Of a DNA stretch of 64,000 nucleotides, positions 1 through 26,832 are shown one piece after another (position 1 is the first letter of the stretch; every line of letters starts with the position of its first letter). Origin of the DNA: Patescibacteria group bacterium. Its GTDB lineage: Bacteria > Patescibacteriota > Patescibacteriia > JAXHNJ01. The DNA is taken from the NCBI GenBank assembly GCA_034520665.1, contig JAXHNJ010000001.1:2579-66578 (forward strand), written 5' to 3'. A model generated the notes under the pieces. That model saw nothing but the letters and a program-made list of their open reading frames with translations. It had not been told where the DNA came from and did no database searches. A program made the position numbers and the translations under genes.

Positions 1-1577
1 AAGGCGATAAAGTTCTATTATCAAACGCTGAAAACAAATCAATTGTTAGGTTGTTTGAAGCTAACATTGACCACGGCAACCCTGAAGGTAAAGACCCTTG
101 GTCAGCTTACCCAACCTTTTACAAGAAGAGGGGTAAAAAATACGGTAAAATAGTTGATGAGTTAACAGGAATTAAGACAGATATAATTGATGTTGTTAAT
201 AAAGATTTAAAAACAATCTATAAAAATATAGAAAACGGTTTAACTCCAGATACAAAATGTTTTGTTATTAGTCAGGTTATTCGTGATACAGGTATTGAAT
301 TGCCAGTAAAAGATATTATTGAATTTGTGAGAAAGAAAAAACAAGAACTTAATCCTAAAGACCCAGATATTTTTGTAATGATTGATGGGGCACAGGCATT
401 AGGCAATGTTTCAGAAGTAAAGTTTGATGACATAGGTTGCGACGCATATTTTGGCACTCCTCATAAAACAATGGCCAGCACCCCATTAGGATTAGGATAT
501 TTTAATCCTGATAGCCCTAAAGTTAAAAAGAATTTGTTCAAATTAAATAAATTACACTGGCAGGATGAGCAGGTTATTTTGAAGTACATGTTTGATGATA
601 AACTAGAGATACATCCGAATACAGATATTGAAGATGAGATTGATTGTGTTGACGCTTTTGGCTTTAATAATGCTATCCAGACTTTAGAGGAGAAAGGCTA
701 CGAAAATGGAAATTTTGAAAAGGTAACACAAGAACGCCAAGAACTTAAAGATTATTTTAGAGATAAAATTCATCAAATTGCTGAACAGGAAGGTTTAACT
801 TTGTACGAAGTTGAAGGAGGAACATCATTTATTTATTCTTTTAGTGTTTCAGGAGTTGATAATAAAGAGTTTGCACAAAAGTTAGCTGATAAAGGCATTT
901 ACCTGTCTTATATAGACCGAACAAAAATTCAGAAAAAAGATTTGCAATGGCACGGAAACGGGGTAATCAGAGCTTCATTTAGTATTGATAACAAAAAAGA
1001 AGAAATTGATAATTATTTGCCTAAAATTCAAGAGGCATTACAAGAAGTTGTCCAGACTGAGTTTACGACTTTTGAAGAAAAGGCAGAGCAAGAAGTATTA
1101 TTCAAAAAACCAGAAAATGTTTATGCTATGTTTGAATGGTTGAAAGAGAAGACCAAATCGCCAATTGTCAAAATTGCCACAACCGCTGCAATGATATTGA
1201 CTATTTTAATTAGTTCAGAGTTATTAAAACAAAAAGAAGGTAAAGAAATAATAGCTGATAAAAGCTTCCTTAAATCAAAAACCGAACAATTTGAAAAATA
1301 TCAAAAAATATATCATCACTATAGAGGGCTATTTGAACGAGACGGTTTTCAGCATCAGGTTGTTCAGCAAATGGGAATGTCGGAGTTAGAGATGGATAAA
1401 TATAAATTACTTGTTAATTTAACTGACGAAGATGAATTAAATAAATTATTAAAGGACGACATTGATATTCAATTAGCTTCAAGTTTTGGATACAACGAAG
1501 TAGAAAAAGACCAAATGGAAAAAGTATATCAGCAGACAAAAAATAAAAAGTTAGAAAAGTTAATTCAGTTGATCTAG
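1..1577 (+). CDS. Window-truncated duplicate of the C-terminal 508 codons of the radical-SAM/aminotransferase fusion gene (full copy at 23011..26832)
   Basis: Protein identical to the C-terminal part of the 1273-aa ORF on the other arm. It contains the PLP-lysine motif GTPHKTMASTPLG. It is part of the left arm of the inverted duplication. Confidence 0.6.
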   Translation, partial: GDKVLLSNAENKSIVRLFEANIDHGNPEGKDPWSAYPTFYKKRGKKYGKIVDELTGIKTDIIDVVNKDLKTIYKNIENGLTPDTKCFVISQVIRDTGIELPVKDIIEFVRKKKQELNPKDPDIFVMIDGAQALGNVSEVKFDDIGCDAYFGTPHKTMASTPLGLGYFNPDSPKVKKNLFKLNKLHWQDEQVILKYMFDDKLEIHPNTDIEDEIDCVDAFGFNNAIQTLEEKGYENGNFEKVTQERQELKDYFRDKIHQIAEQEGLTLYEVEGGTSFIYSFSVSGVDNKEFAQKLADKGIYLSYIDRTKIQKKDLQWHGNGVIRASFSIDNKKEEIDNYLPKIQEALQEVVQTEFTTFEEKAEQEVLFKKPENVYAMFEWLKEKTKSPIVKIATTAAMILTILISSELLKQKEGKEIIADKSFLKSKTEQFEKYQKIYHHYRGLFERDGFQHQVVQQMGMSELEMDKYKLLVNLTDEDELNKLLKDDIDIQLASSFGYNEVEKDQMEKVYQQTKNKKLEKLIQLI

Positions 1578-2032
1578 GAAAAAATAAAGTCGTTTCCGCA
1601 TCCCGCTCAAGCAGGATTACAAATCAAGAAATGGTCAAGAAAGAAGAAAGAAAATTTAATCAAAGGTAAAAAAACTTAATACCTTTTTAAAACACAATTA
1701 TTTATCGAGGGTAACCCCGAGTGGCTTAAATAATACAAACAAACAGCGGTTTTAACGGATTCGTCGTTGTTTTTTTATTTTATTAAGGTAATTTTTTTTA
1801 TCTTTATAGTTTAATCTACTTTTTAAATTCGCTAGCCGTTCACGCTTTTCGTCTAGACTACCCTCTTTTAAGAGATATTTTGCGTATTTTGCGAATATTC
1901 ACTTCAACTTCTCCGAGCCATTTCTTTGTTTTTAAACCCCAATCTACGTACCTCAAAACACTAACTTGAAAAATCCCCTAAAAAAACCTATAATTAGAGT
2001 ATAATTTAAATAATAAACGGAGGAAAAAATAT

Positions 2033-2533
2033 ATGGCTGAAGAAAAAAAAGAAATCCCTGATCGGGGTAAAACCTTACTTTCATGGGATTTTTCAGAATA
2101 TGACATACCTAATCGGGGAAAATTATGGTATGTTTCTACTTTATTAATATCGGCGGCTATTTTAGTGTGGTCAATCTTTACCGGTAATTATCTCTTTACC
2201 CTGGTTATTATTCTGGTGGGTATTATTTTTGTTTTCCAAAACCGTAAAAAACCAAAAATTCTTGAGTGCCGCATTAAAGAAGATGGTATAGAAACTGGCA
2301 CTAGCTTCTATGACTACAATGATATTAAAAAATTCTGGATTGTTTACCGCCCTCCTGAAACAAAAGTGCTTTATATCGATTTTAAAAGCTCACTTAAACC
2401 AACCCTGCCTATTTCTCTGGAAAAACAAAACCCACTTGAAGTCAGAAAAGTGTTAAAAAAATATATTGAAGAAGATTTAGAAAAGGAAGAAGAGCCAGCT
2501 TCAGATCAAATTAGCCGTTCACTTAAGATTTAG
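2033..2533 (+). CDS. Hypothetical membrane protein (two predicted TM helices)
   Basis: ORF with an RBS-like ggagg upstream and hydrophobic segments. An identical copy lies at 22055..22555(-). Confidence 0.5.
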   Translation: MAEEKKEIPDRGKTLLSWDFSEYDIPNRGKLWYVSTLLISAAILVWSIFTGNYLFTLVIILVGIIFVFQNRKKPKILECRIKEDGIETGTSFYDYNDIKKFWIVYRPPETKVLYIDFKSSLKPTLPISLEKQNPLEVRKVLKKYIEEDLEKEEEPASDQISRSLKI

Positions 2534-2559
2534 ATTAATTATAAGATATCTTTACTTTT

Positions 2560-2631
2560 GCCCTCGTCGTTCAACGGATAGGACGTAGGATTGCGGATCC
2601 TAAAATAGAGGTTCAATTCCTCTCGAGGGCA
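2560..2631 (+). tRNA. tRNA-Arg (anticodon GCG)
   Basis: Hand-folded cloverleaf. Acceptor GCCCTCG/CGAGGGC, D-stem GTTC/GGAC, anticodon stem TAGGA/TCCTA with loop TTGCGGA, T-arm AGAGG-TTCAATT-CCTCT, discriminator A. No encoded CCA. Confidence 0.7.
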
Positions 2632-2682
2632 TGGGTAAGGATAATTTTTTATTTTTAAAATTAATTATGCTATCATATAAAC

Positions 2683-3504
2683 ATGGATAATTTTTATAAA
2701 GAGCCAAAAATATTTTCTGAAAATCAACAAGGTTTTAAAACTGGTTTTATTGCCGCCATTGTTATAATTATTTCTTTATTAATAATTTTCGCTGGTTTAA
2801 CTAAAGCTGCTATTATAGATAATTTTCTTAATATACCTTTATTAGAACCAAATTCATCTAGTATCGATACCAGAAAATCTGACTCTTTAAATACTAATAC
2901 AAGGGGTTATCCAGTTATAACTTCTTATAGTATTGAAGATATTGGCTCTCCTGTAGAAAAACCAGTAATTTATCTTTACCCAGAAAAAGAAACTCAAATA
3001 GAAATAAATATAGATTTCCCCGGAAAAATATTCGCATCAAATCCCGAATATCAAAATGGCTGGCATGTGATAGCAAAACCTAGTGGGGAAATATTAAATC
3101 TAATAAATAATAAAAAATACAACTATCTTTTCTGGGAAGGACAATACCAGAACAAGATCGCCTACGATCTTTCACAAGGCTTTATTGTAAAAGGAAAAAA
3201 TACAAAATTATTCTTCCAAAAAAGTTTAAAAGATATGGGCCTTATTGACCAAGAAATAAAAGAATTTATCGAATATTGGCTACCACGTATGCAAAACAAT
3301 AAATTTAACCTTATTCATTTTGCTACGGCAGAAGAATATCATAATCGAGTTAAATTAAATATTTTACCAAAACCGGATTCAGTACAAAGAATTATTATGG
3401 TTTACAAAGCCTTAGAAGACCCAATAAAAATTACACCTCAATTAATAAAAAACTTCGAAAGAATAGGATTTACTGTAATCGAATGGGGTGGCATCGAATT
3501 ATAA
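2683..3504 (+). CDS. Hypothetical N-terminally membrane-anchored protein
   Basis: ORF with an N-terminal TM helix. No recognisable catalytic motif. Mirrored at 21084..21905(-). Confidence 0.45.
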   Translation: MDNFYKEPKIFSENQQGFKTGFIAAIVIIISLLIIFAGLTKAAIIDNFLNIPLLEPNSSSIDTRKSDSLNTNTRGYPVITSYSIEDIGSPVEKPVIYLYPEKETQIEINIDFPGKIFASNPEYQNGWHVIAKPSGEILNLINNKKYNYLFWEGQYQNKIAYDLSQGFIVKGKNTKLFFQKSLKDMGLIDQEIKEFIEYWLPRMQNNKFNLIHFATAEEYHNRVKLNILPKPDSVQRIIMVYKALEDPIKITPQLIKNFERIGFTVIEWGGIEL

Positions 3505-3524
3505 AGTAACTCTTAAAAATACTG

Positions 3525-5630
3525 TTGATAATTTTAGTATTTTTATTGAATAGATCTATGATCAAAGCTAATTCTGATTTTACAGAAATTCCTACTGTCG
3601 GACCAACCACAGCCCGACGGCTAAAAAGTCTTGGCTTAAATAAAGTACAAGACCTTCTTTTTTATTTTCCTAATAGATACCAGGATTTTTCCGAAATAAC
3701 CCCTATCAAAGACATTAAGCCGGAAGAAGTTTATACTATCAGAGGTACCTTACAACTTATAAAAAGCCGGCGCAGCTGGAAAAAGCGTCGTCTGACTATT
3801 ACTGAAGCTATGGTTAAAGATAAGACTGCTTCTATTAAAATAATTTGGTTTAATCAGCCTTATCTAAAGAAAATACTTAATCCCGGAGATGAAATTATTC
3901 TTTCGGGTAAGGTTAAAATGCAGGAATTAACTTTGGAATTCTTAGCTCCTTCTTTTGAAAAAGTAAAAAAAGAACAAACCCACACCGGCCGTATAGTACC
4001 GGTTTATCCCTTAACTAGCGGACTTTCTCAAAGACAAATAAGATTTTTTATAAAAACTGCACTAACTTTGCGTAAAAAAATTAAAGAAACCCTGCCTGAA
4101 AGAATTACCAAAAAATACCAGCTAATGCCTTTGCCAGAAGCTATAAAACAAATTCATTTTCCTGATTCTTTTGAAAAGTTAGAAAAGGCTTCAAAGAGAC
4201 TTAAATTTGGCGAGCTTTTTTATATTCAGATACAATCACTGCAAAATAAAAGATTTATTAAACAAACTCGTGCTCCGGTTATAAATTATAAAGATAAATA
4301 TATTGATGATTTTAAAAATAACCTGCCTTTTAAACTAACCAAGGCTCAGGAAAAAGCAAGTCAGGAAATTATTAAAGATCTTAAAAAAGGTAACCCCATG
4401 AACAGGCTTTTAGAAGGAGACGTAGGCTCTGGAAAAACAGTAGTGGCCCTAATGGCTGCTTTTCTAGCCATTAAAAATGGCTTTCAAGTGGCTTTTATGG
4501 CTCCGACAGAAATACTGGCCCGGCAGCATTATTTAAAAATAAAAAATATATTAAAAACTTTTAACTTCTCTCTGGGGCTTTTAACCAGTAAACTGATAAA
4601 AATTAACGATGAGGAATTATCAAAAAAGAAAGCCAGTACTATAATAAAAAAAGGTGGCGTGAATATAGTTATTGGCACTCATTCTATAATCCAGGAAAAA
4701 ATTAGTTTTCACAATTTAGCTTTTGTGGTGGTTGATGAACAGCACCGTTTCGGAGTTGAGCAAAGAAAAGCCCTAAGAGACAAATCCTCAAAAAAACATG
4801 ATTTAGCGCCACATTTACTCTCAATGACCGCCACCCCCATTCCTCGCTCGCTGGCTCTAACTGTCTACGCTGACCTTGACCTTTCTATAATTGACCAAAT
4901 GCCTCAGGGCCGTAAAAAAATAAAAACTGAAGTGATTGAACCGGAAAAAAGAAAAAAAACTTACAAGTTTATTAAAGAAGAAATTAAAAATGGAAACCAG
5001 GTTTTTGTAGTCTGTCCTTTAATCGAACCTTCGGATAAACTAGGTGTAAAATCTGTTAAAGAGGAATATGAGAAAATAGCTAAAGATATTTTTCCAGATT
5101 TTAAAGTGGCCAGGCTCCACGGTAAAATGAAAACCCAAGAAAAAGAAAAAATTATGGATCAAATGAAAAATAAAGCCATAGATATCCTAGTTTCCACCTC
5201 AGTTATTGAAGTCGGCATAGATATTCCTGACGCCACGGTCATGATGATTGAAGGAGCTGAAAGATTTGGTTTGGCTCAACTGCATCAGTTTCGGGGGCGA
5301 GTGGGGCGCAGTGAAAAACAATCTTTTTGCTTTGTTTTTACAGAAAGTGAATCACCCAAAAATCTAAAAAGACTGGAGGCTTTAGAAAAATCTCAAGATG
5401 GTTTTAAATTAGCTGAATATGACTTAAAAATGCGCGGTCCCGGTGTGTTAACCGGTGCCCAACAATCTGGTTTGCCCGATTTCAAAATGGCCACTTTGGC
5501 AGACGTAGATATTATTAAAATGGCACGTGAAGCAGCCCAAGATTTAACTAAAAAAGATCCGGCCTTGAAAAAATATTATAAAATTAAGCAAAAGGCCGAG
5601 AATTTATATAAAGACACACATTGGGAATAA
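3525..5630 (+). CDS. recG: ATP-dependent DNA helicase RecG
   Basis: Walker A GDVGSGKT, DEQHRFG (DEAH-like box) and a helicase C-terminal domain with the QxxGRVGR motif. Size ~700 aa with an N-terminal wedge region. Confidence 0.9.
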   Translation: MIILVFLLNRSMIKANSDFTEIPTVGPTTARRLKSLGLNKVQDLLFYFPNRYQDFSEITPIKDIKPEEVYTIRGTLQLIKSRRSWKKRRLTITEAMVKDKTASIKIIWFNQPYLKKILNPGDEIILSGKVKMQELTLEFLAPSFEKVKKEQTHTGRIVPVYPLTSGLSQRQIRFFIKTALTLRKKIKETLPERITKKYQLMPLPEAIKQIHFPDSFEKLEKASKRLKFGELFYIQIQSLQNKRFIKQTRAPVINYKDKYIDDFKNNLPFKLTKAQEKASQEIIKDLKKGNPMNRLLEGDVGSGKTVVALMAAFLAIKNGFQVAFMAPTEILARQHYLKIKNILKTFNFSLGLLTSKLIKINDEELSKKKASTIIKKGGVNIVIGTHSIIQEKISFHNLAFVVVDEQHRFGVEQRKALRDKSSKKHDLAPHLLSMTATPIPRSLALTVYADLDLSIIDQMPQGRKKIKTEVIEPEKRKKTYKFIKEEIKNGNQVFVVCPLIEPSDKLGVKSVKEEYEKIAKDIFPDFKVARLHGKMKTQEKEKIMDQMKNKAIDILVSTSVIEVGIDIPDATVMMIEGAERFGLAQLHQFRGRVGRSEKQSFCFVFTESESPKNLKRLEALEKSQDGFKLAEYDLKMRGPGVLTGAQQSGLPDFKMATLADVDIIKMAREAAQDLTKKDPALKKYYKIKQKAENLYKDTHWE

Positions 5631-5639
5631 GCCAAGCTC

Positions 5640-5668
5640 TTGACAAATATTAAAATTTTAGATAGTAT
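5640..5668 (+). promoter_or_regulatory. Sigma70-like promoter (TTGACA-N17-TAGTAT) immediately downstream of recG
   Basis: Perfect -35 hexamer and 17-nt spacer read directly from the sequence. It precedes the structured leader of the 91-aa ORF. Confidence 0.4.
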
Positions 5669-5680
5669 TTATTATTATAG

Positions 5681-5810
5681 GCACTTTAAGTACACACGAG
5701 GGAGCGCTTCCGCTCATAAATAACTAAAGTCTTAAACAGGTAAAGATTGATCCTCTCGCCTGTTTAAAAGACTATTTATAAAAAAAGTGCTCCCTCTTTA
5801 ATTTTTTCAA
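5681..5810 (+). promoter_or_regulatory. Structured 5' leader (nested hairpins, terminator-like long-range stem + T-run); candidate riboswitch/attenuator
   Basis: GAGCG-CTTC-CGCTC hairpin. A 13-bp interrupted stem agtcttaaacagg/cctgtttaaaagact. A long-range stem gagggagc...gctccctc followed by tttaatttttt. A 7-codon uORF with AGGAGG lies downstream. Confidence 0.35.
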
Positions 5811-5923
5811 TTAATTAATTATTTCTTGGTCTAGTTGACTTAAAAACAAAAAAAGGAGGTGAATTAATTGAAATATAAAACCATAAATTAGCTAAGTTTG
5901 TCTGTTTAAAGAGAGGATCAAAG

Positions 5924-6199
5924 ATGTGTGTCTACACAAATAATCTCTGTTCTTTACTGGGAGTTAACAACGCCAGTCAGATTATACATCGCAACGGAGA
6001 AAAAACATTATTAGAAGAAATCCGGAAATTTTCAAAAAAGGAAGGATTCAAAAAACATCTTGAAAGAAACAGCAGTGGCTTAATCAACTGGGCCCGGCAA
6101 TGGGCTGAGCATGAAAATCACTCCAAGTTAAGAAATGAGGTTATTAAAATAATTGGGGATGTTAATCCCGAAATTAAAAAACATCTACAGACAAACTAG
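5924..6199 (+). CDS. Hypothetical 91-aa protein
   Basis: Good RBS (gagagga 7 nt upstream of the ATG) and a strong intrinsic terminator immediately downstream. Identical copy at 18389..18664(-). Confidence 0.5.
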   Translation: MCVYTNNLCSLLGVNNASQIIHRNGEKTLLEEIRKFSKKEGFKKHLERNSSGLINWARQWAEHENHSKLRNEVIKIIGDVNPEIKKHLQTN

Positions 6200-6208
6200 T
6201 ACTTTCAC

Positions 6209-6242
6209 CAGGGTGGTTCAGCCGAACCACCCTTCTTTTTTT
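6209..6242 (+). terminator. Rho-independent terminator
   Basis: GGGTGGTTC-agcc-GAACCACCC stem-loop followed by TTCTTTTTTT. Confidence 0.8.
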
Positions 6243-6305
6243 ATAGATTAAAAAAAATCTTATTTAAAAAAAAGATCTTTTTATATTATTTGGCTTAATT
6301 AATTT

Positions 6306-6926
6306 TTAAAGCAATGAATCAATAATATCTTTGAGTTCCTCCTCTTCAATTAACTCAGTTATTTCATAATTATTTACAAAGAAATGAGGCGTGCCCTGAA
6401 CACCTAAACTTGTTCCTTCCTCTATATCTTTCTGAATTAAAGCTAGGGTTTCATTATTATTAACACATTGAATAAATTCATCAGTGTCCAAATCTAAGCC
6501 AGAAGCTAAGGGTACATATAAGTCATCAGTTAGTTTTTTTTGGTTTTGAAAAAGTAGATCGTGCATCTGCCAAAATTTATCCTGCTTCTGAGCGCAACGG
6601 GCCGCCTTAGCCGCGTTTAAAGATTGATCATGAATTTGATGAAGCGGAAAATCCTTCCAGACAATAGCTATCTCTCCTTCATATTCATCATTTAAATTAC
6701 GAAAAATATCGGCCAACTCTCTGCAATAAGGACACTGAAAATCCCCATATTGAATTATTACCACTTCATTACTTTTTTTCCCTATAATGGGGTTTTCTGA
6801 TTTAATTTTCGGAAAACTTGAACCAGTTTTATCATTAAAAAAAGACAAAACCGAATAAGCAAATAGAATAACTATTAATACAGCTAATACTATTAAAGCA
6901 TTTAGGCCTAGCTTTTTTTTATCCAT
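6306..6926 (-). CDS. DsbA-like thiol:disulfide oxidoreductase (membrane-anchored thioredoxin fold, CPYC active site); intact copy
   Basis: N-terminal TM helix. CxxC motif FQCPYCRE with a thioredoxin-fold context. 206 aa. The copy on the other arm is frameshifted. Confidence 0.8.
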   Translation of the reverse strand: MDKKKLGLNALIVLAVLIVILFAYSVLSFFNDKTGSSFPKIKSENPIIGKKSNEVVIIQYGDFQCPYCRELADIFRNLNDEYEGEIAIVWKDFPLHQIHDQSLNAAKAARCAQKQDKFWQMHDLLFQNQKKLTDDLYVPLASGLDLDTDEFIQCVNNNETLALIQKDIEEGTSLGVQGTPHFFVNNYEITELIEEEELKDIIDSLL

Positions 6927-6929
6927 TTA

Positions 6930-8186
6930 TTATTTCAGTCTTATTTTATAAACTCGTCCTGTATTTTTATCGGTAAAATAAATATATTCTTCATTATTGG
7001 AAAGATAAACATTCTGGGCCGTATAGTTACCAAATCCGGAAGAATTTACCGGTCTAGCTAATAATTCTTTTGAACCTGTTTCCAGATTAATTTTATAAAA
7101 ATCATCAGGTACATTATTAGCTAATTCCGGATAAATGTCACTGCCACTGGGCAGAAATTCAGGTACGGCGCAGTAAATATAATTATTATCGCCAAAAACA
7201 CATTTATCAGGCCAGGTCTGTATGTTTAAATCAACTTGACTGGCTCCTATATTTTCCATAGTGCCGTCCATTATATGAAGACTGGGGTTATAATTTGATT
7301 CTTTGTCAAAAACACTGTATAAAATAGTATTGCCTGTCGGTGACCATTTTGATTTAAAACCCCTTCCGGATACATCAACAGAGGGGAAATTTTCATTATT
7401 AGCCCCTAAAAAAATTATTTCCTGCTCTTCAGTACTGGTTGATTTGTTATAAGTAGCAATAACCTGATTATTAGGAGCCCAATTTACAGTTACTTGATTA
7501 GCATATTGCCCCAAGTCTTCCACCAATCTGGCTGAAGTGCCTTCAGGGTCAGAAACAGCTAAATAATTATCTCCTTCCTGCTCGCCCTGATACTTATAAG
7601 CTAATTTACCTGATGACGGAGAAAAAGAAAATTCATATGTTTCTTTAGGTAAACTGTACTGCTTTTTTAGGTTAAAATCGTAAGTTATTTTGGATCGGTC
7701 AGGAAAAGTAATAACAGCTTTATCACGTGAAGGAGACCAGTAAATATCTTCGGCTCCGGGATATTTATCGTCAGTTAATTTTGTTTTAGTGGTGCCATCC
7801 GGCGAAGTTTTAATAAATTCTCCAGTTAATTCATCATAATAAATCAAATCCTTTTTATTGGTATCTATTACAGCTGACTTGGTTAAGTCTTCGGTAATCT
7901 TACTAACCTCGGTAATCCCGCCGGAAGCTACCTGGGAGGGCGGTTCGGGCTGAGCTGTACCATTAATATTAGGCAAAGCTTCGTTAACATTTAAATTATC
8001 ATTAATATTGCCTGTGGGGCGATTAACCGCGTTAATATTAGGTAAAATGCCGTTGACATTATAATTATCATTATCATTAGTATCTATTATTGGCGAAAAT
8101 AAGATACGGTAAATTAAATAGCCAAAAAAAACGGCTACGGCTATAAAGCCGATAATGAGTAAAATTCTTTTTAATTTTGGGTTCAT
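6930..8186 (-). CDS. Membrane-anchored PD40/TolB-like beta-propeller repeat protein
   Basis: N-terminal TM, an N-rich linker, then repeated Y/W-rich blade-like segments (YWSPSRDKAVITF, SFSPSSGKLAY, VNWAPNNQVIATY, KWSPTGNTILYSV). Confidence 0.5.
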   Translation of the reverse strand: MNPKLKRILLIIGFIAVAVFFGYLIYRILFSPIIDTNDNDNYNVNGILPNINAVNRPTGNINDNLNVNEALPNINGTAQPEPPSQVASGGITEVSKITEDLTKSAVIDTNKKDLIYYDELTGEFIKTSPDGTTKTKLTDDKYPGAEDIYWSPSRDKAVITFPDRSKITYDFNLKKQYSLPKETYEFSFSPSSGKLAYKYQGEQEGDNYLAVSDPEGTSARLVEDLGQYANQVTVNWAPNNQVIATYNKSTSTEEQEIIFLGANNENFPSVDVSGRGFKSKWSPTGNTILYSVFDKESNYNPSLHIMDGTMENIGASQVDLNIQTWPDKCVFGDNNYIYCAVPEFLPSGSDIYPELANNVPDDFYKINLETGSKELLARPVNSSGFGNYTAQNVYLSNNEEYIYFTDKNTGRVYKIRLK

Positions 8187-8341
8187 ATAATCTATTTATA
8201 AATTAATTAAATTATTTATTAATAGTTAAAATACAGATAAGTTTGGAGCTAAAATTTTATAATTAATAGTAGAGTTTATTAGCTGTATTTAGATATAAAA
8301 AAATATTTCTCTAATAATTTGACGATATAATCAAGTAAATT

Positions 8342-9616: not shown

Positions 9617-9796
9617 CTTATTATTTAATTAGGAAAAATATTATTTTCATTTTTAACATATAAGTTAACATCCATACAGCAATGTCCATTAGGCACAATA
9701 CTGCAATCAGTAGCACTGGCAGATGCACTTGATCCACAAGGATTTTCTCCACATAAAGCCGATAATGAGTAAAATTCTTTTTAATTTTGGGTTCAT
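9617..9796 (-). pseudogene. Gene remnants: 42-nt copy of the first 14 codons of the 418-aa propeller gene (MNPKLKRILLIIGF) fused to a decayed Cys-rich C-terminal tail (..ENPCGSSASASATDCSIVPNGHCCMDVN..)
   Basis: 9755..9796 is identical to 8145..8186. Downstream, an alternative frame reads a Cys-rich tail resembling paralog C-termini. Confidence 0.5.
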
Positions 9797-17660: not shown

Positions 17661-17663
17661 TAA

Positions 17664-18282: not shown

Positions 18283-18345
18283 AAATTAATTAAGCCAAAT
18301 AATATAAAAAGATCTTTTTTTTAAATAAGATTTTTTTTAATCTAT

Positions 18346-18379
18346 AAAAAAAGAAGGGTGGTTCGGCTGAACCACCCTG
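18346..18379 (-). terminator. Rho-independent terminator (mirror of 6209..6242)
   Basis: Same GC stem and T-run on the minus strand. Confidence 0.8.
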
Positions 18380-18388
18380 GTGAAAGTA

Positions 18389-18664
18389 CTAGTTTGTCTG
18401 TAGATGTTTTTTAATTTCGGGATTAACATCCCCAATTATTTTAATAACCTCATTTCTTAACTTGGAGTGATTTTCATGCTCAGCCCATTGCCGGGCCCAG
18501 TTGATTAAGCCACTGCTGTTTCTTTCAAGATGTTTTTTGAATCCTTCCTTTTTTGAAAATTTCCGGATTTCTTCTAATAATGTTTTTTCTCCGTTGCGAT
18601 GTATAATCTGACTGGCGTTGTTAACTCCCAGTAAAGAACAGAGATTATTTGTGTAGACACACAT
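18389..18664 (-). CDS. Hypothetical 91-aa protein (right-arm copy)
   Basis: Identical to 5924..6199. Confidence 0.5.
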   Translation of the reverse strand: MCVYTNNLCSLLGVNNASQIIHRNGEKTLLEEIRKFSKKEGFKKHLERNSSGLINWARQWAEHENHSKLRNEVIKIIGDVNPEIKKHLQTN

Positions 18665-18777
18665 CTTTGATCCTCTCTTTAAACAGACAAACTTAGCTAA
18701 TTTATGGTTTTATATTTCAATTAATTCACCTCCTTTTTTTGTTTTTAAGTCAACTAGACCAAGAAATAATTAATTAA

Positions 18778-18907
18778 TTGAAAAAATTAAAGAGGGAGCA
18801 CTTTTTTTATAAATAGTCTTTTAAACAGGCGAGAGGATCAATCTTTACCTGTTTAAGACTTTAGTTATTTATGAGCGGAAGCGCTCCCTCGTGTGTACTT
18901 AAAGTGC
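18778..18907 (-). promoter_or_regulatory. Structured 5' leader, mirror copy of 5681..5810
   Basis: Reverse complement of the left-arm leader. Confidence 0.35.
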
Positions 18908-18957
18908 CTATAATAATAAATACTATCTAAAATTTTAATATTTGTCAAGAGCTTGGC

Positions 18958-21063
18958 TTATTCCCAATGTGTGTCTTTATATAAATTCTCGGCCTTTTGC
19001 TTAATTTTATAATATTTTTTCAAGGCCGGATCTTTTTTAGTTAAATCTTGGGCTGCTTCACGTGCCATTTTAATAATATCTACGTCTGCCAAAGTGGCCA
19101 TTTTGAAATCGGGCAAACCAGATTGTTGGGCACCGGTTAACACACCGGGACCGCGCATTTTTAAGTCATATTCAGCTAATTTAAAACCATCTTGAGATTT
19201 TTCTAAAGCCTCCAGTCTTTTTAGATTTTTGGGTGATTCACTTTCTGTAAAAACAAAGCAAAAAGATTGTTTTTCACTGCGCCCCACTCGCCCCCGAAAC
19301 TGATGCAGTTGAGCCAAACCAAATCTTTCAGCTCCTTCAATCATCATGACCGTGGCGTCAGGAATATCTATGCCGACTTCAATAACTGAGGTGGAAACTA
19401 GGATATCTATGGCTTTATTTTTCATTTGATCCATAATTTTTTCTTTTTCTTGGGTTTTCATTTTACCGTGGAGCCTGGCCACTTTAAAATCTGGAAAAAT
19501 ATCTTTAGCTATTTTCTCATATTCCTCTTTAACAGATTTTACACCTAGTTTATCCGAAGGTTCGATTAAAGGACAGACTACAAAAACCTGGTTTCCATTT
19601 TTAATTTCTTCTTTAATAAACTTGTAAGTTTTTTTTCTTTTTTCCGGTTCAATCACTTCAGTTTTTATTTTTTTACGGCCCTGAGGCATTTGGTCAATTA
19701 TAGAAAGGTCAAGGTCAGCGTAGACAGTTAGAGCCAGCGAGCGAGGAATGGGGGTGGCGGTCATTGAGAGTAAATGTGGCGCTAAATCATGTTTTTTTGA
19801 GGATTTGTCTCTTAGGGCTTTTCTTTGCTCAACTCCGAAACGGTGCTGTTCATCAACCACCACAAAAGCTAAATTGTGAAAACTAATTTTTTCCTGGATT
19901 ATAGAATGAGTGCCAATAACTATATTCACGCCACCTTTTTTTATTATAGTACTGGCTTTCTTTTTTGATAATTCCTCATCGTTAATTTTTATCAGTTTAC
20001 TGGTTAAAAGCCCCAGAGAGAAGTTAAAAGTTTTTAATATATTTTTTATTTTTAAATAATGCTGCCGGGCCAGTATTTCTGTCGGAGCCATAAAAGCCAC
20101 TTGAAAGCCATTTTTAATGGCTAGAAAAGCAGCCATTAGGGCCACTACTGTTTTTCCAGAGCCTACGTCTCCTTCTAAAAGCCTGTTCATGGGGTTACCT
20201 TTTTTAAGATCTTTAATAATTTCCTGACTTGCTTTTTCCTGAGCCTTGGTTAGTTTAAAAGGCAGGTTATTTTTAAAATCATCAATATATTTATCTTTAT
20301 AATTTATAACCGGAGCACGAGTTTGTTTAATAAATCTTTTATTTTGCAGTGATTGTATCTGAATATAAAAAAGCTCGCCAAATTTAAGTCTCTTTGAAGC
20401 CTTTTCTAACTTTTCAAAAGAATCAGGAAAATGAATTTGTTTTATAGCTTCTGGCAAAGGCATTAGCTGGTATTTTTTGGTAATTCTTTCAGGCAGGGTT
20501 TCTTTAATTTTTTTACGCAAAGTTAGTGCAGTTTTTATAAAAAATCTTATTTGTCTTTGAGAAAGTCCGCTAGTTAAGGGATAAACCGGTACTATACGGC
20601 CGGTGTGGGTTTGTTCTTTTTTTACTTTTTCAAAAGAAGGAGCTAAGAATTCCAAAGTTAATTCCTGCATTTTAACCTTACCCGAAAGAATAATTTCATC
20701 TCCGGGATTAAGTATTTTCTTTAGATAAGGCTGATTAAACCAAATTATTTTAATAGAAGCAGTCTTATCTTTAACCATAGCTTCAGTAATAGTCAGACGA
20801 CGCTTTTTCCAGCTGCGCCGGCTTTTTATAAGTTGTAAGGTACCTCTGATAGTATAAACTTCTTCCGGCTTAATGTCTTTGATAGGGGTTATTTCGGAAA
20901 AATCCTGGTATCTATTAGGAAAATAAAAAAGAAGGTCTTGTACTTTATTTAAGCCAAGACTTTTTAGCCGTCGGGCTGTGGTTGGTCCGACAGTAGGAAT
21001 TTCTGTAAAATCAGAATTAGCTTTGATCATAGATCTATTCAATAAAAATACTAAAATTATCAA
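18958..21063 (-). CDS. recG: ATP-dependent DNA helicase RecG (right-arm copy)
   Basis: Identical to 3525..5630. Confidence 0.9.
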   Translation of the reverse strand: MIILVFLLNRSMIKANSDFTEIPTVGPTTARRLKSLGLNKVQDLLFYFPNRYQDFSEITPIKDIKPEEVYTIRGTLQLIKSRRSWKKRRLTITEAMVKDKTASIKIIWFNQPYLKKILNPGDEIILSGKVKMQELTLEFLAPSFEKVKKEQTHTGRIVPVYPLTSGLSQRQIRFFIKTALTLRKKIKETLPERITKKYQLMPLPEAIKQIHFPDSFEKLEKASKRLKFGELFYIQIQSLQNKRFIKQTRAPVINYKDKYIDDFKNNLPFKLTKAQEKASQEIIKDLKKGNPMNRLLEGDVGSGKTVVALMAAFLAIKNGFQVAFMAPTEILARQHYLKIKNILKTFNFSLGLLTSKLIKINDEELSKKKASTIIKKGGVNIVIGTHSIIQEKISFHNLAFVVVDEQHRFGVEQRKALRDKSSKKHDLAPHLLSMTATPIPRSLALTVYADLDLSIIDQMPQGRKKIKTEVIEPEKRKKTYKFIKEEIKNGNQVFVVCPLIEPSDKLGVKSVKEEYEKIAKDIFPDFKVARLHGKMKTQEKEKIMDQMKNKAIDILVSTSVIEVGIDIPDATVMMIEGAERFGLAQLHQFRGRVGRSEKQSFCFVFTESESPKNLKRLEALEKSQDGFKLAEYDLKMRGPGVLTGAQQSGLPDFKMATLADVDIIKMAREAAQDLTKKDPALKKYYKIKQKAENLYKDTHWE

Positions 21064-21083
21064 CAGTATTTTTAAGAGTTACT

Positions 21084-21905
21084 TTATAATTCGATGCCAC
21101 CCCATTCGATTACAGTAAATCCTATTCTTTCGAAGTTTTTTATTAATTGAGGTGTAATTTTTATTGGGTCTTCTAAGGCTTTGTAAACCATAATAATTCT
21201 TTGTACTGAATCCGGTTTTGGTAAAATATTTAATTTAACTCGATTATGATATTCTTCTGCCGTAGCAAAATGAATAAGGTTAAATTTATTGTTTTGCATA
21301 CGTGGTAGCCAATATTCGATAAATTCTTTTATTTCTTGGTCAATAAGGCCCATATCTTTTAAACTTTTTTGGAAGAATAATTTTGTATTTTTTCCTTTTA
21401 CAATAAAGCCTTGTGAAAGATCGTAGGCGATCTTGTTCTGGTATTGTCCTTCCCAGAAAAGATAGTTGTATTTTTTATTATTTATTAGATTTAATATTTC
21501 CCCACTAGGTTTTGCTATCACATGCCAGCCATTTTGATATTCGGGATTTGATGCGAATATTTTTCCGGGGAAATCTATATTTATTTCTATTTGAGTTTCT
21601 TTTTCTGGGTAAAGATAAATTACTGGTTTTTCTACAGGAGAGCCAATATCTTCAATACTATAAGAAGTTATAACTGGATAACCCCTTGTATTAGTATTTA
21701 AAGAGTCAGATTTTCTGGTATCGATACTAGATGAATTTGGTTCTAATAAAGGTATATTAAGAAAATTATCTATAATAGCAGCTTTAGTTAAACCAGCGAA
21801 AATTATTAATAAAGAAATAATTATAACAATGGCGGCAATAAAACCAGTTTTAAAACCTTGTTGATTTTCAGAAAATATTTTTGGCTCTTTATAAAAATTA
21901 TCCAT
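21084..21905 (-). CDS. Hypothetical membrane-anchored protein (right-arm copy)
   Basis: Identical to 2683..3504. Confidence 0.45.
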   Translation of the reverse strand: MDNFYKEPKIFSENQQGFKTGFIAAIVIIISLLIIFAGLTKAAIIDNFLNIPLLEPNSSSIDTRKSDSLNTNTRGYPVITSYSIEDIGSPVEKPVIYLYPEKETQIEINIDFPGKIFASNPEYQNGWHVIAKPSGEILNLINNKKYNYLFWEGQYQNKIAYDLSQGFIVKGKNTKLFFQKSLKDMGLIDQEIKEFIEYWLPRMQNNKFNLIHFATAEEYHNRVKLNILPKPDSVQRIIMVYKALEDPIKITPQLIKNFERIGFTVIEWGGIEL

Positions 21906-21956
21906 GTTTATATGATAGCATAATTAATTTTAAAAATAAAAAATTATCCTTACCCA

Positions 21957-22028
21957 TGCCCTCGAGAGGAATTGAACCTCTATTTTAGGATCCGCAATCC
22001 TACGTCCTATCCGTTGAACGACGAGGGC
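21957..22028 (-). tRNA. tRNA-Arg (GCG), right-arm copy
   Basis: Reverse complement of 2560..2631. Confidence 0.7.
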
Positions 22029-22054
22029 AAAAGTAAAGATATCTTATAATTAAT

Positions 22055-22555
22055 CTAAATCTTAAGTGAACGGCTAATTTGATCTGAAGCTGGCTCTTCT
22101 TCCTTTTCTAAATCTTCTTCAATATATTTTTTTAACACTTTTCTGACTTCAAGTGGGTTTTGTTTTTCCAGAGAAATAGGCAGGGTTGGTTTAAGTGAGC
22201 TTTTAAAATCGATATAAAGCACTTTTGTTTCAGGAGGGCGGTAAACAATCCAGAATTTTTTAATATCATTGTAGTCATAGAAGCTAGTGCCAGTTTCTAT
22301 ACCATCTTCTTTAATGCGGCACTCAAGAATTTTTGGTTTTTTACGGTTTTGGAAAACAAAAATAATACCCACCAGAATAATAACCAGGGTAAAGAGATAA
22401 TTACCGGTAAAGATTGACCACACTAAAATAGCCGCCGATATTAATAAAGTAGAAACATACCATAATTTTCCCCGATTAGGTATGTCATATTCTGAAAAAT
22501 CCCATGAAAGTAAGGTTTTACCCCGATCAGGGATTTCTTTTTTTTCTTCAGCCAT
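22055..22555 (-). CDS. Hypothetical membrane protein (right-arm copy)
   Basis: Identical to 2033..2533. Confidence 0.5.
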   Translation of the reverse strand: MAEEKKEIPDRGKTLLSWDFSEYDIPNRGKLWYVSTLLISAAILVWSIFTGNYLFTLVIILVGIIFVFQNRKKPKILECRIKEDGIETGTSFYDYNDIKKFWIVYRPPETKVLYIDFKSSLKPTLPISLEKQNPLEVRKVLKKYIEEDLEKEEEPASDQISRSLKI

Positions 22556-23010
22556 ATATTTTTTCCTCCGTTTATTATTTAAATTATACTCTAATTATAG
22601 GTTTTTTTAGGGGATTTTTCAAGTTAGTGTTTTGAGGTACGTAGATTGGGGTTTAAAAACAAAGAAATGGCTCGGAGAAGTTGAAGTGAATATTCGCAAA
22701 ATACGCAAAATATCTCTTAAAAGAGGGTAGTCTAGACGAAAAGCGTGAACGGCTAGCGAATTTAAAAAGTAGATTAAACTATAAAGATAAAAAAAATTAC
22801 CTTAATAAAATAAAAAAACAACGACGAATCCGTTAAAACCGCTGTTTGTTTGTATTATTTAAGCCACTCGGGGTTACCCTCGATAAATAATTGTGTTTTA
22901 AAAAGGTATTAAGTTTTTTTACCTTTGATTAAATTTTCTTTCTTCTTTCTTGACCATTTCTTGATTTGTAATCCTGCTTGAGCGGGATGCGGAAACGACT
23001 TTATTTTTTC

Positions 23011-26000
23011 CTAGATCAACTGAATTAACTTTTCTAACTTTTTATTTTTTGTCTGCTGATATACTTTTTCCATTTGGTCTTTTTCTACTTCGTTGTATCC
23101 AAAACTTGAAGCTAATTGAATATCAATGTCGTCCTTTAATAATTTATTTAATTCATCTTCGTCAGTTAAATTAACAAGTAATTTATATTTATCCATCTCT
23201 AACTCCGACATTCCCATTTGCTGAACAACCTGATGCTGAAAACCGTCTCGTTCAAATAGCCCTCTATAGTGATGATATATTTTTTGATATTTTTCAAATT
23301 GTTCGGTTTTTGATTTAAGGAAGCTTTTATCAGCTATTATTTCTTTACCTTCTTTTTGTTTTAATAACTCTGAACTAATTAAAATAGTCAATATCATTGC
23401 AGCGGTTGTGGCAATTTTGACAATTGGCGATTTGGTCTTCTCTTTCAACCATTCAAACATAGCATAAACATTTTCTGGTTTTTTGAATAATACTTCTTGC
23501 TCTGCCTTTTCTTCAAAAGTCGTAAACTCAGTCTGGACAACTTCTTGTAATGCCTCTTGAATTTTAGGCAAATAATTATCAATTTCTTCTTTTTTGTTAT
23601 CAATACTAAATGAAGCTCTGATTACCCCGTTTCCGTGCCATTGCAAATCTTTTTTCTGAATTTTTGTTCGGTCTATATAAGACAGGTAAATGCCTTTATC
23701 AGCTAACTTTTGTGCAAACTCTTTATTATCAACTCCTGAAACACTAAAAGAATAAATAAATGATGTTCCTCCTTCAACTTCGTACAAAGTTAAACCTTCC
23801 TGTTCAGCAATTTGATGAATTTTATCTCTAAAATAATCTTTAAGTTCTTGGCGTTCTTGTGTTACCTTTTCAAAATTTCCATTTTCGTAGCCTTTCTCCT
23901 CTAAAGTCTGGATAGCATTATTAAAGCCAAAAGCGTCAACACAATCAATCTCATCTTCAATATCTGTATTCGGATGTATCTCTAGTTTATCATCAAACAT
24001 GTACTTCAAAATAACCTGCTCATCCTGCCAGTGTAATTTATTTAATTTGAACAAATTCTTTTTAACTTTAGGGCTATCAGGATTAAAATATCCTAATCCT
24101 AATGGGGTGCTGGCCATTGTTTTATGAGGAGTGCCAAAATATGCGTCGCAACCTATGTCATCAAACTTTACTTCTGAAACATTGCCTAATGCCTGTGCCC
24201 CATCAATCATTACAAAAATATCTGGGTCTTTAGGATTAAGTTCTTGTTTTTTCTTTCTCACAAATTCAATAATATCTTTTACTGGCAATTCAATACCTGT
24301 ATCACGAATAACCTGACTAATAACAAAACATTTTGTATCTGGAGTTAAACCGTTTTCTATATTTTTATAGATTGTTTTTAAATCTTTATTAACAACATCA
24401 ATTATATCTGTCTTAATTCCTGTTAACTCATCAACTATTTTACCGTATTTTTTACCCCTCTTCTTGTAAAAGGTTGGGTAAGCTGACCAAGGGTCTTTAC
24501 CTTCAGGGTTGCCGTGGTCAATGTTAGCTTCAAACAACCTAACAATTGATTTGTTTTCAGCGTTTGATAATAGAACTTTATCGCCTTTTTTAAGTCCTAC
24601 CAACCAAGAAACTAATTTCATTGCCTCGGTTGTATTTCTGCCAAAAACAACTGCTTCTGGTTTAACCCCCACCAATTCAGCTGCTTTTTCTCTCGCTTGT
24701 TCAAATAATTGTTCTTTTTGATTTTCAGACACATCTTTTGCCTCTGCTAACATCTTTTCAATTTCTTTTGGTCTGTTGGTAATAGAAGCGTGGTTTAAGT
24801 GTAGCGCTTCTCTTTCTCCATCAAGATATTCTTGATAATAATCCCAATTAAAATAAAAATCTTCTTCAAATTCCTGCCTATATTTTTCAAGATGTTGTTG
24901 AATTTCTTGGCTGTCAAATTCTACTCCTATCAAGCCCTTACCTAATTTTTTACGAGCATAAGCATATATCTCATTTACTTTCGGGATATTTAAATTAGAC
25001 AGATGATGAGCCGACTCAAAACGAGGATGTCTTTTAAGTTTTTGGCTAAAATCTGGAAGCACTCCCTTTTTGGACAACTCCAACCACTCTTGTGTTCCTG
25101 GATAGGCAGTATTTATATTTATACCAACAGAATTTTTAGATATTAAACCTTGAGATTTTAACTCTGAAATATAATCAATAGTCTGCTGATAGCTTCCTAT
25201 ACCTTCTAATCCGAACTGAAGAGAAACCCCTACTTTTATGCCAGCCTCTTTGCACCAATCCAATACATTTTCAACTTTTTCTAATTTAATTTTTTTACCA
25301 CCTTTAGATATAGCTTCTTCTAATTGTTCAAAGCCAAAATAAATATAGGAACAACCCGATTCTTTCATCTTATCAATAAATTCTTTATTTGGAATATCAA
25401 TAAAAGTTGTTTGACAGCCCCATTCAAAAGAAGCTTCTTCTTTTTGTAAATCAATTATCCCATCCAATAATTTTTCTGTTCTTTTTGGTTTTTGAGTAAA
25501 AGTCGAGTCATCAAAAAATACTGCTTCGTATCCATAATCTTTAATTAGAATTTCAATTTCTTTTAATGCTCGCTCTGGAGTTGGTCTGTCTTTACATAAT
25601 TTGTAAAGTGATGGTTGTTTATCTTTATTTGACAAGAGTGACTCCATACAAAAACTGCAAGCGTATTTACACATTATTTGGGTCATAACTTGAGCTGTTT
25701 TTTTATCACCAAAAACAGGAAACTTATTTTCTGTGGTCAATCTACCTCTAAACATAAAAGGCAATTTATTCCAGTCAACTGGGTTGCCTGACAAAGAAAT
25801 TGAATTAACTTTGTCTTTCTTATCTTTGACAAAGATATTGCCAGACCCTTCCACATTTTGAAAAATATCTTTATTTTTTATTATTTCGTCAATTATTTCC
25901 TGATTTTTTTTATCTGTATTATTAGCAATAAACTTAAAAATTTCTGTCAGGGCATATTGCCCGTCGCCAGCAACTAAAATATCAATTAACTCTTTTTCCT

Positions 26001-26832
26001 GCTCCTTGCTTAAAGTTGATTGTTTTTCAAGTGTCTTTTTTTGTTCATCTGTTAAACCAAGTTTTTCTCTAATACTTGGGTTAAAATACGCTTCGTGATT
26101 TGTCCCATCTTCATGAGAACCGCCCAAAATAACCAATGTGTCTGGGGAGTATTGCTTAACAATTTTAGCCAGCTCAATAGCAAAATAATGACCTTCGGAA
26201 GTGTTGCTTATCCCAACCGCTCTTGGTTTTTTGTCTTTTATTTCTTCAACAAAATTTTTAACAAATTCATCACTATACTCAGCGGGATTTTGCATTGATA
26301 AAATTTCAGGACTTTTCTCTGCTGGGAAAGTATCAGTTCTGACATATCTGTCCAAAACAGAAGTTGCATACATTAAAGGAGTTGGTTCGCCTGGGAATGT
26401 TCCGCTAACACCTTCTGAAATATGCGGGGCACTAACAAACATTACTGAAAAATGTTTCAGCTTATATTTCTCGTCTTCAAGTGCTTCAACAAATTTTTCG
26501 TGGCTTGTAAATTTCATATCTTTCAAATTTTGTTTAGCCTGTTTTTCTATTTTCAAATCCCGCTCCTTCAAAAAACTAATATATTCATTCGTATTAAATT
26601 CTTGTTCAGGACTGAAATAGTAAGCCTTACCTGTCTCTTTTTCAATTTTCTTTTCTGTATCAGTTAAATCTTCTGAAACCTTTTTCTCTTGACCTTCCCT
26701 AATCACTTCCAAATCAGCGCCTTCCTGTAAGGTGTCAGCAAGGCCTTTATTCTTTAAAGTTTTTGCCCTCTTTTCTAAGTTAATGGCTTCTTCGTGAAGA
26801 CTGTTTATATTATTTTCCTTTCTCTTAATCAT
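23011..26832 (-). CDS. Multidomain fusion: coiled-coil N-terminus + B12-binding domain + radical SAM core + class-V aminotransferase/cysteine-desulfurase-like PLP domain + C-terminal extension
   Basis: Rossmann-like B12-binding stretch RAVGISNTSEGHYFAIELAKIVKQYSPDTLVILGGSH. Radical-SAM CxxxCxxC (MCKYACSFCME). PLP-fold region with GTPHKTMASTPLG (Lys-PLP) and FVMIDGAQALG. 1273 aa. Confidence 0.7.
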   Translation of the reverse strand: MIKRKENNINSLHEEAINLEKRAKTLKNKGLADTLQEGADLEVIREGQEKKVSEDLTDTEKKIEKETGKAYYFSPEQEFNTNEYISFLKERDLKIEKQAKQNLKDMKFTSHEKFVEALEDEKYKLKHFSVMFVSAPHISEGVSGTFPGEPTPLMYATSVLDRYVRTDTFPAEKSPEILSMQNPAEYSDEFVKNFVEEIKDKKPRAVGISNTSEGHYFAIELAKIVKQYSPDTLVILGGSHEDGTNHEAYFNPSIREKLGLTDEQKKTLEKQSTLSKEQEKELIDILVAGDGQYALTEIFKFIANNTDKKNQEIIDEIIKNKDIFQNVEGSGNIFVKDKKDKVNSISLSGNPVDWNKLPFMFRGRLTTENKFPVFGDKKTAQVMTQIMCKYACSFCMESLLSNKDKQPSLYKLCKDRPTPERALKEIEILIKDYGYEAVFFDDSTFTQKPKRTEKLLDGIIDLQKEEASFEWGCQTTFIDIPNKEFIDKMKESGCSYIYFGFEQLEEAISKGGKKIKLEKVENVLDWCKEAGIKVGVSLQFGLEGIGSYQQTIDYISELKSQGLISKNSVGININTAYPGTQEWLELSKKGVLPDFSQKLKRHPRFESAHHLSNLNIPKVNEIYAYARKKLGKGLIGVEFDSQEIQQHLEKYRQEFEEDFYFNWDYYQEYLDGEREALHLNHASITNRPKEIEKMLAEAKDVSENQKEQLFEQAREKAAELVGVKPEAVVFGRNTTEAMKLVSWLVGLKKGDKVLLSNAENKSIVRLFEANIDHGNPEGKDPWSAYPTFYKKRGKKYGKIVDELTGIKTDIIDVVNKDLKTIYKNIENGLTPDTKCFVISQVIRDTGIELPVKDIIEFVRKKKQELNPKDPDIFVMIDGAQALGNVSEVKFDDIGCDAYFGTPHKTMASTPLGLGYFNPDSPKVKKNLFKLNKLHWQDEQVILKYMFDDKLEIHPNTDIEDEIDCVDAFGFNNAIQTLEEKGYENGNFEKVTQERQELKDYFRDKIHQIAEQEGLTLYEVEGGTSFIYSFSVSGVDNKEFAQKLADKGIYLSYIDRTKIQKKDLQWHGNGVIRASFSIDNKKEEIDNYLPKIQEALQEVVQTEFTTFEEKAEQEVLFKKPENVYAMFEWLKEKTKSPIVKIATTAAMILTILISSELLKQKEGKEIIADKSFLKSKTEQFEKYQKIYHHYRGLFERDGFQHQVVQQMGMSELEMDKYKLLVNLTDEDELNKLLKDDIDIQLASSFGYNEVEKDQMEKVYQQTKNKKLEKLIQLI

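Follow-up and report, generated by a model that had tools for sequence, protein, structure and literature searches.

Does the chromosome of an uncultured Patescibacteria (CPR) bacterium really carry a palindrome with arms of some 12 kb, or was a single locus folded back upon itself on its way into the assembly? The question arises at the very start of the stretch of DNA analysed here (64,000 nucleotides, referred to as the window). The evidence favours, with a probability of roughly 0.87, a technical fold-back, i.e. a chimeric long read, formed during library preparation or amplification and taken into the assembly, over a true chromosomal feature. Most likely, the left arm (1..12290) is a redundant copy and the fold-back hides, in this window, the true neighbouring genes of a secretion system.

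The arms of the palindrome

The initial annotation had described a near-perfect inverted duplication, and both self-BLAST and an arm-versus-arm alignment bear it out. In the former, window 1..24587 matches 24587..1, its own reverse complement, with 99.93% identity over 24,594 columns; in the latter, 1..12290 pairs with 24587..12299 with zero mismatches and six gap openings, corresponding to seven bases. A 12.3-kb match at such identity is well outside chance expectation. The centre of the palindrome is formed by the eight nucleotides TCGGCGGT at 12291..12298. The axis at ~12294.5 and the sums of paired coordinates (24588-24590), both given previously, proved right, the drift from 24588 to 24590 being due to the indels between the arms (left-arm positions 6773, 6837, 11058, 11309, 11578 and 11588). 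Among them are length changes in homopolymers (T7/T6, A7/A6) as well as a garbled run, A10, for which the two arms give different readings. Differences confined to indels, several of them in homopolymers, are a signature of long-read error rather than of divergence. Two marks of a fold-back artefact are found here, namely adjoining reverse-complement segments of one locus with an 8-nt centre between them, and error-like arm differences (indels, homopolymers) with no substitution among them.

The genuine copy of the locus is the right arm (12299..24587), which runs on into the unique sequence on its right according to the alignments of two short-read contigs (L001 and L002, see below). The left arm, its inverted and redundant copy, is judged artefactual and begins at the window edge within the gene of a 1273-aa protein. 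A scan of the window against Rfam returned four tRNAs only, with no match at the axis, and a search of GTDB genome contigs and of JGI metagenome contigs for a 44-mer adjoining the axis gave no exact hit.

Short-read contigs through the axis

For comparison, short-read Logan contigs from run SRR26473340 were used, including L001 and L002. Against the unique part of the window they match 31,318 bp at 100% identity, without differences, and are therefore regarded, on sequence identity, as the same strain. A literature search for the run found nothing.

Homology between L001 and the window begins at L001 6882, equivalent to window 12293, and L001 6882-8382 aligns to 12293..13796, while nothing in the window matches L001 1-6881 (VirB4-like, TraC-like, PrgI-like and PPDK_N). 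L001 passes the axis into an intact VirB4-like ATPase/TraC-like/PrgI-like operon and extends 6.9 kb beyond it; as is typical of a fold-back artefact, the contig goes on past the breakpoint, and the junction is devoid of independent support. The alignment of L002 (to window 27182..16418) spans the arm boundary and shows two homopolymer indels only (17752 and 17815). Left-arm positions 1..8172 are 100% identical to L002, and the indels specific to the left arm relative to L001 are at 11058, 11309 and 11578-11588.

Logan contigs tend to stop at or near repeats detected by self-BLAST; L001 nevertheless runs unbroken through the axis, as does L002 through the arm end at 24587/24588. The short-read contigs show one through-path at the axis and no branch, so that the agreement with an independent same-strain assembly, as expected of a genuine duplication, was not found. 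A real junction of low abundance could, however, be discarded as a tip in de Bruijn graph assembly.

The central eight nucleotides are neither foreign nor adapter DNA. The genomic 8-mer at L001 6881-6888 is AAGGAGGA, with TCCTCCTT as its reverse complement, and each base of TCGGCGGT is the base of one or the other (8/8 positions, ~0.004 by chance in a test devised post hoc). The 8-nt centre looks like a consensus blend of two strands, not like spacer DNA or a clean junction. An adapter remnant was also considered and rejected, as the genomic 8-mer, read on one strand or the other, accounts for all eight nucleotides.

Gene content and synteny

The axis cuts a VirB4-like T4SS ATPase gene ~18 codons before its stop; these last codons form a remnant at 12293..12347 on the plus strand (mirrored at ~12242..12296, minus strand), and the gene at L001 4927-6936 matches DUF87, AAA_10 and P-loop_TraG. 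The downstream half of a T4SS-like operon follows, with p195, p182, p408, p424 and p418 (12390..17660, plus strand; mirrored at 6930..12199, minus strand). Two of them, p408 and p424, are Cys-rich T4SS_pilin paralogues with 24 and 30 cysteines, p408 lying above the curated cut-off of the Pfam match and p424 just under it. Further along the right arm are a DsbA-like thioredoxin gene (17662..18282, plus strand), recG (18958..21063, minus strand, with RecG_wedge, DEAD, Helicase_C and RecG_dom3_C; mirrored at 3525..5630, plus strand) and a tRNA-Arg (GCG) gene (21956..22029, minus strand; mirrored at 2559..2632, plus strand). A 1273-aa fusion gene with B12-binding radical SAM and class V aminotransferase domains (23011..26832, minus strand) spans the outer end of the arm. 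The labels recG, tRNA-Arg, DsbA and Cys-rich proteins had been correctly assigned; exact-protein look-ups left 5 of 10 without match, probably for reasons of start-codon choice, and are uninformative.

It had also been claimed that every ORF is mirrored. This holds for most pairs, and three are unequal because of the arm indels, their lengths being, left versus right, 206 vs 152 aa (DsbA-like), 104 vs 182 aa and 453 vs 408 aa. In the left arm, the DsbA-like gene (6306..6926, minus strand) has an intact frame of 206 aa; in the right arm, two homopolymer deletions, at 17752 and 17815, shift its frame. L002 encodes the 206-aa form. L002 also encodes exactly the same 1273-aa protein as the window. 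The left arm has only the 3' 1577 bases of this gene, and ORF 51..1577 covers its final 508 codons, as previously noted.

The underlying locus is single copy and comprises PPDK_N, a 592-aa gene, PrgI-like, TraC-like, VirB4-like, p195, p182, the pilins, p418, DsbA, recG (reverse), tRNA-Arg and the 1273-aa gene. The order PrgI-like, TraC-like, VirB4-like, small membrane protein, T4SS_pilin proteins and p418 is that of a Patescibacteria/CPR T4SS-like cluster, of which the window has only part, downstream of VirB4. Among related Patescibacteria genomes with enough downstream sequence, homologues of p195, the pilins or p418 lie directly downstream of VirB4 in 65/65; TraC-like or PrgI-like genes are found upstream of it in 79/79 relatives, and the gene order across the axis point is kept on contigs of up to 1 Mb. 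The axis thus breaks a gene order conserved in all 65 of these relatives.

Distribution of consensus errors

At least six arm-specific and four shared consensus errors were detected in 19.3 kb of arm sequence, and none in the 31.3 kb of unique DNA compared (P from 0.003 to 7e-5), a comparison that was not significant with 6.4 kb of unique sequence and became significant after two more short-read contigs were added. The events all lie in the arms, 8 of 10 within 1.3 kb of the axis. Three indels and one substitution relative to L001 are common to both arms and fall within 90 bp of the axis; such shared differences are not explained by errors arising independently in each arm, and require either a variant molecule or a symmetric artefact of the consensus.

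Origin of the palindrome

A technical fold-back would have begun with a long DNA molecule or read that broke or switched template ~54 nt before the VirB4 stop codon and continued back along the complementary strand, the known sources of such a turn being nanopore library-preparation fold-back reads, MDA/WGA strand switching or a missed hairpin adapter. The assembler would then have extended the contig with the fold-back read, turning at 12291..12298 and replaying 12.3 kb in reverse complement, so that VirB4 was not entered. Short-read polishing would have left the unique sequence perfect and both arms uncorrected; the arms would be beyond its reach because a short read fits either of them equally well, and long-read indel errors would therefore survive only there. 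Near the axis, the consensus may be a mixture of both orientations. As parts of this scheme, I infer the sequencing platform, the polishing history and a location of window position 1 close to the end of a contig, or right at it.

For WGA and missed adapters, palindromic long reads are documented together with the inverted duplications that they produce in assemblies (PMC6218980), and fold-back reads make up ~0.55-0.6% of ONT genomic DNA reads, some of them being without intervening sequence (PMC12870357). The window resembles the fold-back chimeric reads described for ONT (Heinz, Meyerson and Li 2026, PMC12870357) and for WGA/MDA and missed SMRTbell adapters (Pacasus, Warris et al. 2018, PMC6218980) in that one locus is present on opposite strands with almost nothing between, as well as in the long-read indel differences, in the junction without short-read support and in the false inverted duplication of the assembly. 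Unlike the documented reads, this case is known from the consensus contig alone, and has no adapter at its centre.

The initial annotation had offered two alternatives, a real inverted duplication and a fold-back chimera of assembly or amplification, and it is the second that is favoured. A genuine and very recent fold-back inversion in the strain or a subpopulation, i.e. an inverted duplication that lost the sequence next to it and destroyed VirB4 at the locus, e.g. by fork collapse and template switching, is unlikely. The assembled sequence does contain the palindrome, and the four near-axis differences from L001 that both arms share could mark a variant molecule; yet the arms differ by long-read-type indels only, without substitutions, the same-strain L001 reads through the axis with no branch, the inversion would break an operon kept in 65/65 relatives, and the centre resembles a consensus blend, not a clean junction. 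Long perfect palindromes with a spacer of a few nucleotides are highly unstable or lethal in bacteria (Leach 1994; SbcCD literature). It is quite improbable that a subpopulation of this Patescibacteria strain carries a physically real and perfect palindrome of 12 kb or more, in which VirB4 and the T4SS genes upstream are deleted from the locus; a real one might be tolerated since reduced genomes may lack SbcCD-type surveillance that cleaves palindromes. Biological fold-back inversions and large palindromes, such as those of breakage-fusion-bridge cycles, palindromic amplicons and the Y chromosome, share with the window the head-to-head arrangement and the very short spacer. Real ones have junction-spanning reads and doubled depth, and the older ones gain substitutions; unlike them, the arms in the window differ by indels only, and a read-through contig of the same strain contradicts the junction.

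The same mirror pattern is obtained when sequencing passes round a closed end, as at the hairpin telomeres of Borrelia, phage N15 and poxviruses, and a long read rounding the covalently closed hairpin of a linear replicon would be expected to give such a palindrome with a very short centre. That the axis is such a telomere is, however, scarcely credible, and this reading was rejected: the genome does not end at the axis, for the same-strain L001 extends 6.9 kb past it and the gene order across this point is kept in all relatives (65/65); moreover, unlike in the known systems, the axis lies inside a conserved operon, within the VirB4-like coding sequence, and no inverted-repeat site of the telomere-resolvase type is apparent at the centre. 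A purely computational error, in which the contig was wrongly joined, within the graph, to its reverse complement and no physical fold-back molecule existed, is a sub-case of the artefact and would lead to the same assembly outcome as a fold-back read. Graph or consensus handling could produce both the blended 8-mer and the symmetric differences near the axis; the arm-specific long-read errors, however, demonstrate a separate consensus for each arm, which is easier to obtain with reads covering both. A misjoin alone is very unlikely.

Consequences for the gene inventory

The main value of a technical fold-back origin concerns quality control, in that 12.3 kb at the start of the window are redundant and should be dropped. 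The genes for recG, tRNA-Arg, DsbA and the pilins are to be counted once, not twice, and the seeming lack of VirB4 and of upstream T4SS genes beside p195 is false. The warning that half the gene content would be invalid in the case of an artefact was overstated, for the left-arm genes are redundant copies of right-arm genes confirmed by short-read contigs; the error in the window lies in the duplication, together with the adjacency that it creates at the axis. More broadly, palindromes that go unnoticed in MAG collections inflate estimates of duplication and contamination and create false structural variants. If real, a stable and perfect 12-kb palindrome would be a remarkable find in a streamlined bacterium; the evidence points against it. 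The frameshifted ORFs (DsbA in the right arm, p182 and p408 in the left) are consensus errors, not pseudogenes.

Extent of the palindrome and differences between its arms

The inverted duplication recognised in the initial annotation is borne out by self-comparison and by alignment of the two arms: window 1..24587 and its reverse complement are 99.93% identical in an alignment of 24,594 columns. Between the left arm (1..12290) and the right (24587..12299) there is no mismatch; 7 bases are gapped, in 6 openings at left-arm positions 6773 (T7 vs T6), 6837 (A7 vs A6), 11058, 11309, 11578 and 11588, and the centre between the arms is 8 nt long, TCGGCGGT (12291..12298). Because of these indels, the coordinate sums 24588 and 24590 each catch part of the match as ungapped diagonals. 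The left arm starts at window position 1, within the gene for a 1273-aa protein, and each arm carries one tRNA-Arg (GCG) gene, at 2559..2632 (+) and 21956..22029 (-). That every ORF is mirrored holds for most pairs; three are unequal, owing to frameshifts by the indels, namely the DsbA-like ORF (206 aa left, 152 aa right) and two others (104 aa left, 182 aa right; 453 aa left, 408 aa right).

A duplication of any age would gather mainly substitutions; there are none between the arms over 12.3 kb, all differences being indels. One site is A10 in a short-read contig but ...GACATG-A8... in the right arm, and in the left arm the run is shortened, with 3 bases deleted. One long homopolymer mis-read in two ways is the signature of long-read consensus error, so that the arms represent one sequence read twice, each time with noise.

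Short-read contigs of the same strain

The comparison contigs, found via exact-protein look-ups, come from the de Bruijn graph assembly (Logan) of the public run SRR26473340. Three of them, L083 (window 27751..31560), L084 (35207..51037) and L085 (52256..61337), show 0 differences; in all, 31,318 bp of the window's unique part agree fully with the Logan contigs, which are therefore of the same strain. L002 covers window 27182..16418, where it departs from the right arm by two homopolymer indels, and matches left arm 1..8172 with 0 differences.

The decisive contig is L001 (8,382 bp). Its part 6882..8382 matches window 12293..13796, mirrored at 12292..10794, and nothing in the 64 kb of the window corresponds to its part 1..6881. 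This segment codes for five genes, four of them annotated: a PPDK_N-domain protein (Pfam), a 592-aa protein with no Pfam match, PrgI-like and TraC-like proteins, and a 669-aa VirB4-like ATPase (DUF87, AAA_10, P-loop_TraG) whose gene ends at L001 6936. An independent assembly thus runs past the axis into the upstream half of a type IV secretion-like operon, with no turn-round. Since homology starts at 6882, the axis cuts the VirB4-like gene ~18 codons before its stop, an arbitrary position in coding sequence without recognisable structure.

Logan contig ends tend to coincide with, or adjoin, repeats seen in the window self-comparison: L001 ends at window 13796, within the 13742..14279 pilin repeat, L002 ends within the repeats 16392..16447 and 27110..27335, and L085 (ends 52256 and 61337) within 52212..52270 and 61308..61388. 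Between the end of L084 and the repeat at 51099 lie ~60 bp. Conversely, L001 crosses the axis and L002 the outer arm boundary (24587/24588) unbroken, which speaks against any other junction having been appreciably common in SRR26473340.

A conserved operon across the axis

Relatives of the VirB4-like protein, 69-81% identical, occur in 80 fetched loci, nearly all of them MAGs labelled Patescibacteria, Kerfeldbacteria, Falkowbacteria, Buchananbacteria or Parcubacteria. The genes there typically run PPDK_N, 592-aa gene, PrgI-like, TraC-like, VirB4-like, p195, pilin(s), p418 and DsbA, with recG farther along on the reverse strand. Homologues of p195, pilin or p418 (the ORFs downstream in the operon) lie directly 3' of VirB4 on the same strand in all 65 loci having at least 2.5 kb downstream of it, and TraC-like or PrgI-like genes directly before it in 79 of 79. 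The window holds the downstream half only, in two head-to-head copies; the palindrome, if real, would have wrecked one of the most conserved operons of the lineage. A hairpin telomere at the axis is contradicted both by this synteny and by the continuation of L001.

The operon includes tandem T4SS_pilin-domain paralogues with 24 and 30 cysteines (13545-14771 and 14974-16248; mirrors 9819-11180 and 8342-9616), sharing a 540-bp segment at 90% identity, and ~1.4 kb downstream, beyond p418, a DsbA-like oxidoreductase. Disulfide-rich surface proteins paired with their own oxidase are a plausible reading of this arrangement, which is kept in many Patescibacteria loci.

Origin of the palindrome

The genomic 8-mer at the centre (L001 6881-6888) is AAGGAGGA, its reverse complement TCCTCCTT, and TCGGCGGT equals one or the other at 8 of 8 positions (pattern r r f f r f f r, r denoting reverse complement), a fit with a chance of ~0.004 in a test devised after the data were seen. 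So neither adapter nor foreign spacer sits at the centre, which looks like a consensus from reads stacked in both orientations. Relative to the short-read contigs, at least 6 arm-specific errors and 4 common to both arms fall in 19,345 bp of arm sequence, vs 0 in the 31,318 bp of unique sequence (P = 0.003 counting 6 events, 7e-5 counting 10); 8 of the 10 are no more than 1.3 kb away from the axis.

Between the fold-back chimera and the biological duplication envisaged in the initial annotation, the L001 read-through, the indel-only arms and the synteny favour the former and leave the latter unsupported; that the palindrome is not a real genomic feature is strongly supported. I consider it a technical artefact, a fold-back molecule or read taken into the assembly, with a probability of roughly 0.87. 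Such a molecule or read would have been taken up by the assembler in what was probably a long-read assembly followed by short-read polishing; polishing would have corrected the unique sequence and left the arms uncorrected, since a short read fits either arm equally well, and the consensus near the axis would be set by the chimeric read(s) alone, because genuine reads run on into VirB4. Whole-genome amplification is known to make palindromic fragments that end as inverted duplications in long-read assemblies, as do missed SMRTbell adapters (PMC6218980); fold-back reads make up ~0.55-0.6% of ONT genomic DNA reads, some without sequence between the halves, and are thought to originate in library preparation (PMC12870357). 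Amplification, a missed adapter or ONT library preparation may each have been the source here.

The four differences from L001 common to both arms are all no more than 90 bp from the axis (12302, 12326-12328, ~12383 and mirror positions), one being a substitution and the others 1-base insertions. Independent per-arm error leaves them unexplained, and they may reflect either a symmetric consensus artefact or a variant molecule. One of them, an extra T near 12383, shifts the frame at what is likely the true start of p195 (natural N-terminus MKKLSIIIMVAV...). The poor fit of these shared differences with simple independent errors, and the fact that a de Bruijn graph assembler can lose a rare junction, leave some room for a genuine fold-back inversion carried by a subpopulation, which is nevertheless improbable. 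Also improbable is a purely computational misjoin, a sub-case of artefact inseparable from the fold-back explanation without the assembly graph; with it included, an artefact of one kind or the other is very probable indeed.

Gene content and other features

The main use of the finding is as a quality-control flag. Genes of the left arm (1..12290), a redundant copy, are not to be counted; short-read contigs confirm the right arm and all sequence rightward; the gene truly to the left of p195 is the VirB4-like one; and ORFs shortened or lengthened in one arm or the other reflect consensus errors and are not pseudogenes.

The 1273-aa protein (23011-26832, -) fuses a B12-binding radical SAM domain to a class V aminotransferase (cysteine desulfurase-like) domain; since a short-read contig encodes an identical protein, assembly error does not account for the fusion. 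A repeat of ~226-230 bp (27110-27335 and 27559-27788, 96.5% identity) includes hairpin-forming segments, each copy adjoining the 3' end of a different minus-strand tRNA-Ser gene (anticodon TGA, 27330-27419; GCT, 27783-27874); Rfam recognises only the tRNAs there. Adjacent ORFs of 1192 and 1182 aa (34301-41522), for which no confident Pfam match is recorded, are located immediately upstream of a type IV pilus cluster that reaches ~55860 and encodes PilM-like and PilO-like proteins, two T2SSE-family ATPases, a T2SSF-family protein, several N_methyl prepilins and an A24 prepilin peptidase. Short direct repeats of 94-95% identity lie among the prepilin genes (51099-51212 vs 52118-52231; 51432-51490 vs 52212-52270), and a tandem repeat of ~37 bp occupies 61308-61388.
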